A stretch of DNA of 64,000 bases, from positions 76,744 through 140,743 of IMG/VR virus record IMGVR_UViG_2908369612_000002; one strand, given 5' to 3'. The position numbers were made by a program, and so were the translations under genes. The notes below the pieces were generated by a model, which did no database searches, was not told where the DNA came from, and worked only from the letters and a program-made list of their open reading frames with translations. How positions within the stretch are numbered: position 1 is the stretch's first letter; each line of letters opens with the position of its first letter. This document shows, in pieces, positions 1,144 to 63,172 of the stretch. This DNA is from a virus. Its lineage: Duplodnaviria; Caudoviricetes.

Positions 1144-2433
1144 TAAATTTATAGTCGCGTCGCATAGCGATATGCGGATGAAAAGTCAGTGAACCTAGAA
1201 ATCTAGGGTGTGCATTCAGCGAAAAGTAGCGATAGGAAATGATCGTCAATGAGTGTGCTAACAGGGGAATTCTAACTAATACATTTTACATTTTGAACAA
1301 TGATATTTAAAACAAGGGGGTGACAAAGTGAAGTTTATAAATGAAGATGAGCTTAAATATTTGAGTGGTATATATAAGATTGAGCAGATAAGCACCGGCT
1401 TAATATATGTGGGGAAAACTAAGATGAAGTTTATTAAGCGTTACTGGCATCACACATGGAAGCTGAAAAACAATTCGCACTGTAATCGACATTTGCAGAA
1501 TGCTTGGAATAAATATGGAGAAAACGATTTCCAATTTCATGTTTTGCAAACAGTTGATCCAAACTCAGATATGAACGAAATAGAAACTCACTACATAAAT
1601 GAACTAGAGGCCTATTTAAATGGCTTTAACATGACCACCGGCGGAGAGGGCAAGAGTAATTGTAAGATGTCTGACTATACCAAAAAGATTATTGGCAAAA
1701 AGAATAGGATTAATAACATCGGAAGAAAGCTTAGTGATGAGACTAAAGCCAAAATGAGTAAAGCGAGAATTGGCAGAAAGCTCTCTCCGCAGCATAAGGA
1801 AAAGCTTTTACAATCTAGAATGAATAAAAGGCATTCGCCAGAATCTAGATTAAAGATGCGTCAGTCTCATTTAGGGTCAAAAAATAAATCCTCAAAAATA
1901 AATGAAACGAAAGCACATGAGATAAAAGTTCGATTGATTAATGGGGAAAAGATGTCTGAAGTATCAAAGTCAATGCGTGTTTCCTACCCCATCGTTAAAT
2001 CAATATTAGAGTGTAAAGTATGGAATCATATTCATGTTACTGGGTGGGACGGCTTTATTCTTAAATACAATAGCAAGAAGAAAAGCACTCTTACTCCAGA
2101 AGAAGTACTTCGTATAAGAAAACTTCTTAAAAAAGGGTTATCAGCACCCCATGTGGCAAAAATGTGTAACATAAAACCCAATGTTGTTTATGGAATTAAA
2201 CAAGGAAGAACCTATAAAAATGTGAAATGAATGTAGAATGTATTATATGAAAATCCTGTGCCAAGCGTTTACATCATGCTGGGAAGCACTTGTAAATGAA
2301 GGTGCAACGACCATCCTTTATGGAGTAATAATAAGGTGAAATTCCTTATTATGAAGCGCTGACCATCTGTCTAGCACAGATGATGATATGGTCTATTCCC
2401 TAATAAAATATCGGGAAACCGAGGGTATCAAAG
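1144..2433 (+). mobile_element. Group I intron in yonO (1290 nt)
   Basis: Exon ends in U, intron ends in G; P1 CGAU|UA..UAGUCG with U-G wobble; core elements GCTAACAGGGGAA, AATCCTGTGCCAAG, GAAGGTGCAACGAC, GATATGGTCT; splicing restores [12 protein letters not shown]. Confidence 0.92.
1328..2230 (+). CDS. Intron-encoded GIY-YIG homing endonuclease with NUMOD3 repeats
   Basis: GIYKI...IYVG motif; NUMOD3-like GRKLSDETKAKMS, GRKLSPQHKEKL, KRHSPESRLKMR; RBS AAGGGGGTGA. Confidence 0.92.
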   Translation: MKFINEDELKYLSGIYKIEQISTGLIYVGKTKMKFIKRYWHHTWKLKNNSHCNRHLQNAWNKYGENDFQFHVLQTVDPNSDMNEIETHYINELEAYLNGFNMTTGGEGKSNCKMSDYTKKIIGKKNRINNIGRKLSDETKAKMSKARIGRKLSPQHKEKLLQSRMNKRHSPESRLKMRQSHLGSKNKSSKINETKAHEIKVRLINGEKMSEVSKSMRVSYPIVKSILECKVWNHIHVTGWDGFILKYNSKKKSTLTPEEVLRIRKLLKKGLSAPHVAKMCNIKPNVVYGIKQGRTYKNVK

Positions 2434-3087
2434 TTCGCAAAAACCTTATTCATGCCTACTCGTCCTAATCATGTTGATGAGAAAATCAAAGATTACATAA
2501 AAAACAAAGTTCCCCACTTCTTCATTAATGCAAAGGATAAGGAAGATCACAGCGTTGAGCCGGTCAATGAAAGCACCGTAAACAAATTGGATTCACTTAT
2601 CCCTTCTGACAGAATTAATTTTGCTGCAGTTGCCGGGAAATTTGATTACCGTTTCTTACTTAAAAACAAAGAGATTAAACTCGATGAAGCTATTATAAAT
2701 GAATATATACGGCTTGATCGGAACAAGAAATGGATTATGAACGATGAAGATGTTAAACCTGGACAAAAACTTTATGTCTATAAGATTATCAAAGAAAGAT
2801 TGTTGAATGTACATAATGATGAACAATACGTTGCAGATGTTTTAGTAAAGCATCTGTATAAGAAGAAAAGCAAATTTAAATCGACTTTGTGGGAGTGCTT
2901 TGGAGAAAGAATTCTGCTTAACTTAGAATACAATTTCAAGCAGTTTAAAAAATGTACTGGATGCGGGAAATTATTTAAAGCTTCAACAAATAGACAGAAA
3001 AAATGCACAGATTGCTCCAAAATTGAGAGAAGGAAATACCAAAAAAACTTAATGCGAAGAAAAAGAAAAGAAACTGTTAGCATTTAG
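2434..3087 (+). CDS. yonO: YonO exon 2 with C-terminal Zn ribbon
   Basis: In frame after the intron terminal G ([11 protein letters not shown]...); CTGC...CTDC near the C-terminus. Confidence 0.9.
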
Positions 3088-3338
3088 AAAGTGTTTTGAG
3101 TCTTACTCTCCCAAGGGATACAGCGATTTTACCGAAAAAAGTTTAGTAAAAAAAGTGCCTTAATCCCTTGATATGACTGGGCTGACTGCCATTTTAGAGA
3201 TAATCGTCATAAGGGAGAAAGAAAGCTAATTTCCACATAAAAGGGTGAGTAAGTCTCCCATTTTTAAAAAAAGTACAAACGTTTCCGTAATCATACTTTA
3301 ACACAAAAATAAACAAAATCACTAGGAGGAATTTAAAC

Positions 3339-3614
3339 ATGACCAAAACAGAATTTGTTGGAGAAGTTGCAGAAAAATTAGGAGTTACTAAGAAAGAAGC
3401 TGCACCTAAAGTGGAAGCAGTATTTAATGTGGTCGTTGAAACACTAACAAAAGGTGAATCAATCAAGATTCCTGGAGTTGGAACGTTTGAAGTTCGTGAA
3501 CGTGCAGCTCGTAAAGGGAGAAATCCACAAACGGGTGAGGAAATTGATATTCCGGCTACAAAGGCACCTGCATTCAAGGCTGCTAAAGCTCTAAAAGACG
3601 CAGTGAAAGCTTAA
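3339..3614 (+). CDS. yonN: HU-like DNA-binding protein
   Basis: GTFEVRERAARKGRNPQTGEEIDIPA HU signature; RBS AGGAGG. Confidence 0.95.
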   Translation: MTKTEFVGEVAEKLGVTKKEAAPKVEAVFNVVVETLTKGESIKIPGVGTFEVRERAARKGRNPQTGEEIDIPATKAPAFKAAKALKDAVKA

Positions 3615-3642
3615 TAAAGTATCCTTCCTCCCTTTTTCCCTA

Positions 3643-3781
3643 GAATGCGGTGGCGAAAAAGGTAAACGCGTAGATCGAGGTGGTATGACTGACCTTCGGG
3701 AATCTCGAGGCCAACCTTCAAGAGAAGACTAATAGTTGGCGAATTGTCATCCATGAGAGGTGCAAATCCTCTCCCGCATTC
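3643..3781 (+). ncRNA. tRNA-like RNA with an enlarged anticodon domain
   Basis: 8-bp acceptor stem GAATGCGG/CCGCATTC; D-arm-like TGGCGAAAAAGGTAAACGC; T-arm-like GAGAGGTGCAAATCCTCTC; about 85-nt structured middle region. Confidence 0.65.
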
Positions 3782-56299: not shown

Positions 56300-56544
56300 T
56301 TTTATTTCCCCCTATTAATTTTTTAGATTTTGTTAAAGGATAATAGCAGGTTTGACAGGGTGTAATTTTTGTCTCAAGCATTATAGATAGTTAATTACGA
56401 TATTTTAACGGAGTTTTGAAAGAACACTGTTTCATCCAAATGTTTCTTTATAGTCAATGATCCATCCCCTCTCTTATAAACTTCAATAGATAACACCCGT
56501 GACTTTTGCTAACCGCACAATTCAGCGAAGTATTCTTCTTGTTT

Positions 56545-56846
56545 TTATAAGTTGCGTATAGACTTTCCAAAACGGACACCCATTCACTGAAATTTCTACC
56601 TACACTTATATAACGGGTTCGGTACCAGTGTTTTTGCGACATCGAAATTAAAACTTTTCACAACTGATAATATGCACGTCTAATAAATGTCGCGCAAATT
56701 TCCTCCCTCATAAATAACTGCGTATAAACTTTCCGATTGGCACGCCGCCTTCATAAATAACTGCGTATAAACTTCGGGGAATGGACACTTTTCGTTGAAA
56801 TTTCTTCAGTTATAAATAGTTGCGTATGTACTTTAGAAAATGGACA
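56545..56846 (+). repeat. Array of direct repeats with core TGCGTAT...ACTT
   Basis: TGCGTAT at 56553, 56719, 56762, 56821; exact 24-mer at 56708-56731 and 56751-56774. Confidence 0.85.
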
Positions 56847-56969
56847 AAAAAATCCCCCGTCATTAAAAGACGAGGTCAGAATGATGTTAGGGTTAGAATT
56901 AATACGATTTCATTATAAACGAGTTATATTTGCCAACATGTATACCGTTCTAGCAACACTATACACTCC

Positions 56970-57373
56970 TCACCTCTTATGTTGATTTTTAGAGGCTAAG
57001 TGTTGAATTCCCTGGTCCTTAAAAACTTGACGAATATAGGGTGGAGAATAATCGTATGCTCGACTAATTTCCTTCAAACTCATTTTTTTATTAAAATGTA
57101 GATCATAAAGGAAATCAAAATCTTTCGTTCTTCTGCGCTTAGACAGCTCCTGAAATGAAAGCTTGTCCACTTTTTGAGCTTTAAATAAATCTAAAATAAT
57201 CCAATCTGAAATATTTAGTTCCTTAGAAATGTCTCCTACAGTTTTAAGCTCTTCAAAGTGCATTTTTTTGATCTCATTAAATCGCTCTAAATATTGCTGC
57301 CATACGTATTTATGCTGACGTTTAGGCTGAGGGATATCGAGTTGAGAAGTGACATAAAAGTTAAAACCTTGTT
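56970..57373 (-). CDS. Tandem-HTH-like protein; frame open up to the att junction, probably the 3' part of a gene split by integration
   Basis: Two HTH-like repeats; no SD at ATG 57263; no stop between that ATG and the junction. Confidence 0.6.
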
Positions 57374-57390
57374 CTTTACGAGCGTGTCTA
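57360..57390. other. Prophage attachment junction inside spoVK (crossover near 57373/57374)
   Basis: SpoVK similarity ends at KEAIDTLVK (recalled intact continuation HMED...); shift in base composition. Confidence 0.8.
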
Positions 57391-57934
57391 TTGCTTCTTT
57401 TCCAAAGTCTTTTTCTCCGCCTCTTGCCAGAGAATAGGCTTCATCAATAAATAAAATTCCGCCCAGTGACTTTTTGATTAAATCTCTTGTTTTTTGTGCC
57501 GTGTGGCCGATGTATTCCCCGACAAGATCCGCTCGTTCAGCCTCAATGAGGTGACCTTTCGAAAGAACATTCATTTCAAAAAAAAGTCTTCCGATAAGCC
57601 TGGCGACAGTTGTTTTTCCTGTGCCGGGATTGCCTTTAAACATCATATGCAATGCTTGTTTTCCCGCTTTTAAACCTTGTTCCGCCCGTTTTTGGTTCAC
57701 AAAGATCCAAGCGTAAATTTCTTTGATATTCCGTTTCATTTCCTCCATGCCGACCAATGTATTCATTTCTTTTTCTATTTCTTTCAGAATGCCGTGCTTG
57801 GCTTCATTTTTTTGGACAGCGGTCTGATATTCCGCCTCTGCTTCAGCATTTGTCAGCACCTGCTTTTGTCCGTTTAGAATAATGTTGATCTGTCCGTTAT
57901 TTTTATAGGTTACAGCGCGCTCCAACATTTTCAC
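57374..57934 (-). pseudogene. spoVK: 5' part of stage V sporulation AAA+ ATPase, interrupted by the prophage
   Basis: GNPGTGKT, LVGEYIGHTA, LFIDEAYSL; C-terminal part missing. Confidence 0.93.
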
Positions 57935-58190: not shown

Positions 58191-58216
58191 GCACCAATCG
58201 GTTTTGTTCATATGCT
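58191..58216 (+). promoter_or_regulatory. Sigma-K-like promoter of cwlC
   Basis: GCAC...CATATGCT spacing; cwlC is a known sigma-K gene. Confidence 0.55.
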
Positions 58217-58233
58217 GTAATGAGGTGATGGGA

Positions 58234-58998
58234 ATGGTTAAAATTTTTATTGATCCGGGCCACGGGGGAACTGATCCTGGTGCAACAGGCAATGGTTTGC
58301 AGGAAAAGGCGCTGACTTTGCAAATCGCTTTAGCGTTACGCACGATTTTAACCAACGAGTATGAGAATGTTTCTTTGCGAATGAGCAGGACAAGCGACCA
58401 ATTTGTCAGCTTAGATGACCGGGCGGATGCGGCTAATAGCTGGGGCGCAGATTATTTTTTATCCATTCATATTAATGCCGGAGGCGGGACTGGCTTTGAG
58501 AGCTATGTTTATCCGGGAGTCGGATCGCCGACGACAACTTACCAGTCACATATCCATGGAGAGGTTTTGAAAGCGGCGGACTTTGCCGACAGAGGGAAAA
58601 AATCAGCAAATTTCCTTGTGTTAAGAGAGACTGCCATGCCTGCATTGCTTACAGAAAACGGTTTTATTGACACAGCGGCAGATGCCAACAAATTAAAAAC
58701 AGCCAGTTTTATTCAAAGCCTGGCAAGGGGACATGCCAATGGGTTGGCACAAGCCTTTAATCTAAAAAAAAAGCCTAGCGACAGTTTATACAAAGTCCAA
58801 ATCGGAGCCTTCAAAGTAAAAGCAAATGCAGATTCGCTCGCTTCCAGCGCAAAGGCTAAAGGTTTCAATGCGATCGTGCTTTTAAAGGACAGCCTATACA
58901 AGGTGCAAATTGGCGCTTTTTCTTCACAAAACAACGCTGATGCTCTTGTCACTAAAGCAAAAAATGCCGGCTTCGATGCGTTTATCGTACAAGAATAA
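58234..58998 (+). CDS. cwlC: Sporulation amidase with SPOR repeats
   Basis: IFIDPGHGG, SIHINAGG; two YKVQIGAF repeats; divergent from spoVK. Confidence 0.93.
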   Translation: MVKIFIDPGHGGTDPGATGNGLQEKALTLQIALALRTILTNEYENVSLRMSRTSDQFVSLDDRADAANSWGADYFLSIHINAGGGTGFESYVYPGVGSPTTTYQSHIHGEVLKAADFADRGKKSANFLVLRETAMPALLTENGFIDTAADANKLKTASFIQSLARGHANGLAQAFNLKKKPSDSLYKVQIGAFKVKANADSLASSAKAKGFNAIVLLKDSLYKVQIGAFSSQNNADALVTKAKNAGFDAFIVQE

Positions 58999-59042
58999 GC
59001 AAAAAACCCAGTCCCTCTCTCTAATGGAGGAACCGGGTTTTT

Positions 59043-59663
59043 CTATTCTAAAATATCCACGACAAACTGCGACCACGTTTCCAGCCGGCTGTAAACACTT
59101 TCTTGTTTTAACTCAGAAATGCTCATCCACTTGCCTGCAATTTGTTCCTTTTCTTTGACTTCCACATGTGCTCCTGATTTCAATTGAAGCGCTGAAAGGA
59201 TGCCGATATGCACTTTACCGACACTGTTTTCGTCATCATTGATTAAACCGAGTGTGACGATCTTCAGTTTATCTTCTCCATTGATTTGAAGTTCCTCATC
59301 CAGCTCGCGGTCAGTGTTTAGTTTTAACACTTCCGAAAATGATGCTGCCCCTTCAATGTGATTCATATGGCCGCCAAAACCAAGCGAAAGTTTATTGTGC
59401 AGACGCGCCTCTCCTCCGCCTACAAGCCGTTCATAAACAAACACTTCATCTTCGCGTGTAATGACTACGTAAGGAATCGGCTGCTTGAAGAGCGGATCTT
59501 CTTCAGCATCTCCCCTTCTCATTTCACGATAATGCGCCTCAATCTGCGCCATGATTTCAGTGATACGTTCGTCTTCACTGTTTACGCCTTGGAAGGTTAA
59601 GCTTTCTTTCTTAAACACTTCACCCCGCGGAGCAACTAAAATAACTTCATCCATTTTTCCCAT
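59043..59663 (-). CDS. ymaB: NUDIX-like protein
   Basis: KQPIPYV, LSLGFGGH; last gene of the nrdIEF operon. Confidence 0.9.
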   Translation of the reverse strand: MGKMDEVILVAPRGEVFKKESLTFQGVNSEDERITEIMAQIEAHYREMRRGDAEEDPLFKQPIPYVVITREDEVFVYERLVGGGEARLHNKLSLGFGGHMNHIEGAASFSEVLKLNTDRELDEELQINGEDKLKIVTLGLINDDENSVGKVHIGILSALQLKSGAHVEVKEKEQIAGKWMSISELKQESVYSRLETWSQFVVDILE

Positions 59664-59710
59664 TTTTCGTTTTCCTCCTGTTCACATCATCAAGCCGAAA
59701 AGAGCAGATA

Positions 59711-60697
59711 TTATATCTGCTCTTTTTCATCAAAATAAAAGTCGTCGTCTTTAATCGGCTCCACCGTAGCTTTCTTATAGCCATTCCCCTTCATCGAGAA
59801 GAAGTCATGTGATTTTGTTTTTGTGTTTAATCCGTTTAAGACGATCGGATTAATTTCTTCTTCTTCAAAGTAAGAATCAAAGCCGAGGTTCATAAGTGCT
59901 TTATTCGCGTTATAGCGGATAAACTTCTTCACATCGTGTGACAGCCCGACTTGGTCATACAGATCCTCTGTATATTCAAGTTCATTTTCATAGAGCTGTT
60001 CCAATAGTTCAATTGAGAACTCGCGCAGCTCCGCTTTTTTCTCTTCGGGCTGCTTATTGTATATTTCTTGTGCAAGGAGCCCGATGTATACGCCGTGAAT
60101 GGCTTCATCGCGCAGAATCAGGTTGATGATTTCTCCGCTCTGCATCAGTTTTCCTTGTCCGTAGAAGTATAGCGGATAATAGAACCCGCTGTAGAACAAA
60201 AAGCTTTCCAGATAAACCGACGCTACCATGGCTTTGAATAATGAAATCTCATCATCTTTTTTAATGCTTTGATAAAGGCCGACAATGATTTGAGCTTTTT
60301 TCTGCAAAAATTTATTTTGTTTAACCCATTCGAACACTTCGTTGATGGTTTCAGTAGGCGCAAGTGTCATAAAAATATTGGAATACGATTTTGCGTGCAC
60401 CGCATTCTCCATCATGGCCATAAAGTTCAGCACCGCTTTGCGCTGATGGCCCTCTACGTGGTCAGCCACGATCGGCATTCCTGTATTCCCCTGCTCGGTA
60501 TCAAGAAGAGTAAGCCCGGCGAGCACCTTCATATAAGTATCTTGTTCGTTTTTCCCAAGGTACTTCCAAGTGAGGAGATCGCCGTTTAAAGCAATCTCTT
60601 CCGGAAGCCAGAACTGCTTTACATTTTGATTATAGAACATTTGGGTAAAATCATCTTCATGCTTTGACCAGTTTGCTGCGTCATAAATTTTCGTCAC
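59711..60697 (-). CDS. nrdF: Ribonucleotide reductase class Ib beta subunit
   Basis: FWLPEEI, ENAVH, DEAIH motifs. Confidence 0.97.
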
Positions 60698-60714
60698 TAT
60701 AAACTCTCCTTTAA

Positions 60715-63172
<2,458 letters not shown>

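Follow-up and report, generated by a model that had tools for sequence, protein, structure and literature searches.

The 97-aa open reading frame (ORF) at the right prophage end in the window, i.e., the whole stretch of 64,000 nucleotides that was analyzed, is no gene of its own and was identified as the 3′ end of the gene for a 693-aa large serine integrase. Integration of the phage at the Lys-187 codon of the host gene spoVK cuts both genes, and excision rebuilds the 693-aa integrase as well as the 324-aa spoVK product. In the prophage, codons 1–559 of the integrase gene are left at the far (left) end, 132 kb away, and codons 560–693 are located at the right end behind the 5′ part of spoVK. 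The original prediction had claimed that the att site splits a phage gene as well as spoVK, and that attP lies inside this phage gene, possibly the recombinase or a regulator. Both claims were borne out in favor of the recombinase, as the N-terminal part of the integrase at the left end joins the tail in frame at the trinucleotide AAG.

The window consists of bases 76744–140743 of a 140,743-bp provirus record, which is rated as 100% complete. It contains the right end of an SPbeta-like prophage inserted in spoVK, while the left end is located elsewhere in the record. With the SpoVK family model TIGR02881, two halves of the gene were found in the record, matching model positions 1–136 at the window junction and 132–261 at record positions 1447–1839. 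AAG is present at both junctions (record 1828–1830 and window 57374–57376), and the 132,289 bp between the two copies represent the length of the prophage. The features at both ends are the following, given in window positions unless the record is named:

56855..56875, minus strand: hairpin with a T run resembling a terminator, about 95 nt beyond the stop codon of the integrase gene, from a consensus scan only
56970..57263, minus strand: 97-aa ORF, the last 97 codons and the stop codon of the integrase gene, read from an internal Met (ATG at 57261–57263)
56970..57373, minus strand: whole 3′ segment of the integrase gene, codons 560–693 (134 aa, predicted tandem helix-turn-helix tail) and stop codon; codon 560 begins with the G of the AAG core
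57339..57373, minus strand: attP phage arm on the tail side (P′), which encodes the conserved G-F/L-x-F/Y-Y-V and makes up an imperfect inverted repeat together with the arm of the left end
57374–57376, minus strand: AAG core, attR copy, common to both junctions and identical to the spoVK Lys-187 codon, counted from the GTG at 57934
57377..57934, minus strand: 5′ part of spoVK, codons 1–186, starting with the GTG at 57934
record 3592–3738, minus strand: 48-aa ORF, overlapping the stop codon of a yotM-like gene and located directly upstream of the integrase gene

The flanking ORFs at the right end match SMI1/KNR4, YokF nuclease and GNAT-type genes, which are annotated beside the integrase in the phages Goe14 and BUCT082. 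It had also been stated that no integrase gene lies at this end, unlike sprA in SPbeta. This holds for the neighboring ORFs, but not for the tail, which is itself part of the integrase.

At the left end, the N-terminal part of the large serine integrase is encoded by a 566-aa ORF (record 1805–3505, minus strand), which has a TTG start codon nine bases downstream of a GGAGG and extends into the junction. It consists of integrase codons 1–559 and seven codons from out-of-frame spoVK DNA. When the two phage arms were joined at the AAG by a script, a single open frame of 693 aa was obtained, and joining of the host arms in the same way restored the SpoVK protein of 324 aa. Rebuilding of attP from the retrieved other prophage end, which had been proposed as a check, thus gave the expected result, as a minus-strand ORF runs in frame into the 97-aa ORF. 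Over 692 aligned residues, the rebuilt integrase is 93.8% identical to the integrase of Goe14 and 94.1% identical to that of BUCT082. That the 97-aa ORF merely remains from an integrase that decayed in a defective prophage is therefore extremely improbable, since the two parts join without a stop codon, are about 94% identical to the integrase of plaque-forming, lysogenising phages and belong to a provirus record rated as complete. Such decay does occur among the relatives, as a Bacillus siamensis locus (L013) has a tail copy with internal stops.

The 566-aa ORF has the domain order of a large serine recombinase, i.e., a resolvase-type catalytic domain followed by a Recombinase domain and a zinc ribbon with an inserted coiled coil. 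The Pfam matches are Resolvase (PF00239, 76.2 bits, cut-off 23.3, residues 24–174), Recombinase (PF07508, 61.8 bits, cut-off 21.1, residues 197–303) and Zn_ribbon_recom (PF13408, 30.3 bits, cut-off 25.3, residues 315–380). In addition, the ORF matches the catalytic domain of the TP901-1 integrase (3bvp, E 1.4e-6). With an AAG in the 3′ part of the integrase gene and attB at the spoVK lysine codon, it also shows the characters of the Goe14-type integrase of spoVK-integrating Spbetavirus phages.

The position of the cut within the protein was analyzed with a structural model of P0011, a full-length relative of 687 aa with 59% identity to the left-end ORF. The model was built from a 23-row alignment and has a mean pLDDT of 79.3. 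Its best matches by Foldseek are the SPbeta integrase structures 9y66 and 9dxd (E 2e-22), and it also matches the Bxb1 and phiC31 integrases, so that the E-values of the three integrases range from 2e-22 to 2e-13. The coiled coil is represented by long helices over residues 373–495 and the last strands of the second DNA-binding domain lie at residues 513–531. Residues 533–554, which hold the junction, have a pLDDT below 50, and they are followed by a strand (556–564, block-mean pLDDT 56–69) and six helices (pLDDT about 90). According to this model, the cut lies in a low-confidence linker between a complete recombinase core and the predicted tandem helix-turn-helix tail. As the core ends well before the junction, the prophage retains the complete canonical enzyme, and what it loses is only an additional module, putatively for DNA binding.

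Both peptides that flank the junction are conserved. The attP arms form an imperfect inverted repeat around the AAG, in which 22 of 34 positions match at a 1-nt offset (raw count). Since the junction-flanking peptides are encoded by these arms, their conservation may reflect the DNA site.

The unsplit gene was found in free phages. All five free-phage records with a close match (Goe14, BUCT082, BUCT083, SPR and SPbetaL2) contain one integrase CDS of 2082 nt, which ends in the tail, and an unsplit 693-aa ORF is also present on one IMG/VR contig (L035). Because of these single coding sequences and the in-frame join of 693 aa, the split gene is that of the recombinase, and the protein has its putative DNA-binding tail in no state but the excised one, as the original prediction had assumed.

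The layout of a split integrase gene is already known for the same type of integrase from phage Goe14 (Kohm et al., bioRxiv 10.1101/2021.11.22.469490). Its GenBank entry OL580764 annotates a 2082-nt serine-type integrase with the attachment site within it and a nested 97-aa ORF. According to the preprint, Goe14 and a prophage of Bacillus subtilis BS155 integrate in spoVK, AAG is the core of attP and attB, attP is located inside the integrase gene, and the gene is truncated upon integration, whereby a new 97-aa ORF arises (Kohm et al., bioRxiv 10.1101/2021.11.22.469490). The authors observed no relevant similarity of the enzyme to SprA and 28% identity to SpoIVCA of the skin element, and they speculated that integration is the work of the long form and excision that of the short one (Kohm et al., bioRxiv 10.1101/2021.11.22.469490). 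The prophage analyzed here shares with Goe14 and BS155 the integrase type (93.8% identity over the full length), attB in spoVK, the AAG core, the truncation and the nested 97-aa ORF. It differs in its strain and in its size, with 132,289 bp compared to 125,490 bp for Goe14. Four results were not seen in the passages of the preprint that were consulted: the cut within a linker, the split in Clostridia-class genomes and distant Bacillota, the small ORF upstream of the integrase gene, and the lack of a conserved start or ribosome-binding site for the tail. Phage release from Goe14 lysogens after treatment with mitomycin C has been described (PMC12361552, 2025). In the literature found, expression or recombination data are given for neither of the two integrase forms, and nothing on mother-cell excision of spoVK prophages was found.

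In the prophage state, the question arises if the detached tail is made as a protein. It might be produced alone in the lysogen from the mother-cell promoters of spoVK by coupled translation and act in trans as a directionality factor or regulator, which would tie excision to sporulation; such a role as a directionality factor had been suggested for the 97-aa ORF. The arrangement is compatible with this, as the tail is oriented like spoVK, comes immediately after its 5′ part and is followed by a terminator-like site, although the consensus scan found two such sites compared to a mean of 1.3 in shuffles. Furthermore, the tail folds confidently alone (pLDDT about 96 over residues 25–120). In the lysogen, the spoVK frame runs 29 codons beyond the junction lysine, out of frame, to a stop at 57287–57289, and it is different from the frame of the 97-aa ORF, as had been noted. 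This stop precedes the ATG by 23 nt here and in locus L012, it overlaps the start in Virgibacillus (ATGA, L011) and it lies 29 nt before a GTG in L009, so that the spoVK frame ends 0–29 nt before a start codon in four of the seven spoVK-split loci.

Against a translated tail, the spoVK frame already ends 10 nt beyond the junction in the remaining three of these seven loci, and the first in-frame start ranges from tail residue −15 to 46. The Met of the 97-aa ORF is tail residue 38, 111 nt after the junction. Its frame stays open over the 37 codons up to the junction with no start codon on the phage side, as had been predicted, and over 22 further codons in spoVK DNA up to 57440, a stretch in which no ATG, GTG or TTG is found in this frame. 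The absence of a Shine-Dalgarno sequence was confirmed, too: a GGAGG-like motif is missing in the 20 bases before the ATG, as well as in the corresponding 20-nt stretches of all seven loci. The column of this Met alternates between M and L in the relatives, as expected of a buried hydrophobic position, and all ten database relatives of nearly the same length are close Bacillus-type copies, which is consistent with junction fragments. A start codon, a ribosome-binding site or a stop-start coupling for a free tail protein is hence not conserved across the seven loci, and the proposal of a directionality factor transcribed from the mother-cell spoVK promoters is not supported. A free-standing 97-aa tail protein is clearly unlikely.

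An AlphaFold2 model of the 134-aa tail, based on a 13-row alignment, has a mean pLDDT of 86.3 and consists of two three-helix units (helices 24–41, 46–53 and 57–66, and helices 74–95, 100–107 and 111–120). They fit the two HTH-like repeats seen earlier in the ORF, although all Pfam HTH matches stay below the cut-off, the best one being Sigma70_r4 with 17.3 bits (cut-off 24.1). Comparison of the model to the PDB by Foldseek gave nothing at E≤0.001. A wide VIA-align search yielded only generic HTH rows (resolvase, Tc3 and others) with Z≤6.2, all within 1 of each other and pointing to no specific family. The tail also matches the PHROG family phrog_8446 ('HNH endonuclease', E 3.8e-6) and, by tblastn, homing endonucleases of Pseudomonas jumbo phages (E about 1e-4). 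Its distant relatives comprise arrays of Sigma70_r4-, HTH_38-, HTH_23- and HTH_7-type repeats, one of them with an HNH domain. The tail itself has no nuclease domain and only the sub-threshold HTH matches in Pfam, and the endonuclease matches are read as shared HTH modules; an identity as HNH or homing nuclease was rejected.

In an exhaustive search of 1.84 billion representatives, 75 proteins matched the tail at E≤0.001 and 17 at E≤1e-10. The latter include two full-length integrases (691 and 682 aa) and 15 proteins of 71–207 aa. Of these 15, 14 sequences were read, and seven of them start within a few residues of the junction motif. Fused forms are similarly rare in the word-index searches, which gave one such protein when searched for longer relatives and two by region search.

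In species-representative genomes, 13 loci encode the tail. In six of them, the 5′ part of spoVK ends at residue 187–190 directly before the tail; these belong to Bacillus pseudomycoides, Virgibacillus, Nanhaiella, a Clostridiales genome, a Tepidanaerobacter genome and a contig labeled Streptomyces. Two chromosomal loci of Paenibacillus carry an unsplit integrase of 663–672 aa, one is degenerate, and in the remaining four neither spoVK nor the integrase core adjoins the tail. The other junction was found as well: the 3′ part of spoVK, starting at residue 181–184, follows the N-terminal part of the integrase in six of seven loci (three of four close and all three distant ones), the exception being a close locus which ends at the contig end. 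The N-terminal part is missing at E≤1e-20 in two of the five genomes that carry the spoVK-tail junction. In Nanhaiella, both prophage ends lie on one contig, about 141 kb apart. The split at the same spoVK site and in the same linker therefore recurs from Bacillus to Clostridia-class genomes among distant Bacillota, while prophages in spoVK have been described in Bacillus (Kohm et al., bioRxiv 10.1101/2021.11.22.469490).

Some of the loci show further peculiarities. In Virgibacillus, the junction-side motif G-H-G-F-x-F-Y-A occurs twice in tandem after the 5′ part of spoVK (L011:3908–4060), about 30 codons apart, possibly left by successive insertions or by a duplication. The two Paenibacillus loci (L020 and L021) have a shorter linker without the conserved junction peptides next to their unsplit integrase and tail, and transposase and small-recombinase genes are located near one of them (L021). 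Two contigs (L009 and L023) of the assembly labeled Streptomyces contain a Bacillus-type spoVK, which is 96% identical to the one analyzed here, as well as the integrase parts of the prophage, and this assembly probably includes Bacillus DNA.

It might be supposed that the position of attP within the gene is neutral. The tail would then be a dispensable accessory DNA-binding domain, both forms of the enzyme would act alike, and the direction of the reaction would come from a separate factor only. The completeness of the remaining core as a large serine recombinase fits this assumption, and so does the encoding of the junction-flanking peptides by the inverted-repeat arms of attP, by which their conservation may be that of a DNA site. 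Moreover, the Paenibacillus relatives retain the unsplit integrase in the chromosome, and therefore the tail is not always removed in the integrated element. A neutral position is nevertheless doubtful, since the tail is maintained with 27–57% identity over distant lineages and the split recurs at the same linker from Bacillus to Clostridia-class genomes. Selection in the phage form must act on a domain which stays conserved although it is discarded at each integration.

A small ORF located directly upstream of the integrase gene is of interest for the direction of the reaction. The order at the left end is the yotM-like gene, the 48-aa ORF, a spacer of 86 nt and the integrase gene. In all seven related loci, this position is taken by a small ORF whose N-terminus is basic and which has an invariant Y-K; in two of these loci, the gene further upstream is a different one. 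With the small ORF as query in IMG/VR, the N-terminal part of the integrase lies about 90 nt downstream in all 11 loci; eight of these run on into spoVK, one has the unsplit 693-aa form and two show no spoVK match within the locus. The distant copies were picked by position and share only the invariant Y-K; homology among sequences this short has no statistical support.

No similarity of the 48-aa ORF to the SPbeta factor SprB was detected, neither as a BLASTP alignment nor by hhalign, where the probability is 0.7% with a SprB profile of two sequences only. SprB as query gave nothing at E≤1 in the provirus. A SprB-type sequence identity was therefore rejected. This is not unusual, because directionality factors share no common fold, yet bind the same region of the integrase, namely the junction of the second DNA-binding domain and the coiled coil (PMC12286644). 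Based on its conservation and position, the 48-aa ORF is a candidate for the directionality factor of the integrase core. For Goe14, no equivalent of sprB was observed in the preprint (Kohm et al., bioRxiv 10.1101/2021.11.22.469490), whereas here a conserved ORF occupies the position of sprB in SPbeta, directly after the yotM-like resolvase gene.

The spacer between the 48-aa ORF and the integrase start (record 3506–3591, L005) contains a perfect inverted repeat of 9 bp (AAGTATACC ... GGTATACTT), which is not followed by a T run. It may be an operator or an RNA hairpin.

The integrase gene is thus split by its own AAG crossover, and it seems quite probable that the two forms of the enzyme carry out different reactions. 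Integration would be the task of the long form, because an infecting phage can make only this form, and excision would have to be carried out by the 566-aa core, because the lysogen has no intact gene and can make only the short form. The product of the 48-aa ORF would most likely work with the core as directionality factor. The detached tail would most likely simply be lost and not be made as a 97-aa protein, and its loss may itself help to bias the enzyme towards excision.

In a more far-reaching variant, the integrase would set its own direction by cutting its own gene, in that the long form is blind to the factor and only integrates, and the 566-aa form excises. This reading is based on a remark that, in some large serine recombinases, the binding site of the factor could be blocked by a C-terminal extension (PMC12286644). 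Here, the C-terminal extension of the long form would occupy or mask the factor site on the second DNA-binding domain, which would be free in the 566-aa form. By this masking, the long form would only integrate, although the candidate factor is encoded directly upstream and is maybe co-expressed. It may further be imagined that mother-cell transcription from the spoVK promoters leads to production of the detached tail, which would time excision to sporulation. Self-direction by masking is a rather unlikely addition to the division of labor described above, in which the 48-aa ORF acts with the core.

The SPbeta system of SprA and SprB in spsM also consists of a large serine integrase of a Spbetavirus which interrupts a mother-cell sporulation gene. 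Next to attP, it likewise has a small ORF that comes after a yotM-like gene, and the integrase structures are similar, as seen in the Foldseek match of the P0011 model to 9y66 and 9dxd (E 2e-22). In SPbeta, however, the order is yotM (resolvase), sprB and attP, with attP between the convergent genes sprA and sprB, neither of which is cut. SprA has 545 aa and, judged by length alone, no tail of this size.

The archaeal 'suicidal' integrases of the SSV type also carry the attachment site within the integrase gene, which is split by integration; these tyrosine integrases are called exclusive to archaea in a review (PMC8371274). The enzyme described here is a bacterial serine recombinase, of which only an accessory C-terminal domain is removed. 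It does not belong to the SSV type, as it is a serine recombinase and all three core domains remain on the one 566-aa ORF.

The original prediction had also compared the split to the integration-dependent immunity of mycobacteriophages. In mycobacteriophage BPs, attP is located within a phage gene, too, and the protein differs between the free and the integrated state, but the split gene encodes the repressor and the effect is on immunity (PMC4557955). The comparison is thus valid for the layout, whereas beyond it, with the integrase itself being split here, it is an analogy only.

Large serine integrases are widely used in genome engineering, as their reaction is unidirectional unless reversed by a separate factor. 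If the proposed roles of the two forms are true, this integrase would be a natural enzyme that rewrites its own gene by the reaction it catalyzes and would represent a self-contained two-state switch, by which the life cycle of the phage is coupled to a sporulation gene of the host. The small candidate factor and the wide distribution of the split make it easier to test which form of the integrase carries out which reaction.

Two further observations concern the surroundings of the right prophage end. Just beyond the integrase terminator, a direct repeat of 38 nt is present in four copies in non-coding DNA (window 56541–56846), which are 61–76% identical to the reference copy and may be operator sites (SPBRE) of an SPbeta-type repressor. 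To the right of spoVK (window 58204–60727), the translations, read by eye, show a cell-wall amidase with SPOR-like repeats, a small NUDIX-like ORF and the small subunit of a ribonucleotide reductase. These host genes presumably match the cwlC-ymaB-nrdF neighborhood of B. subtilis.
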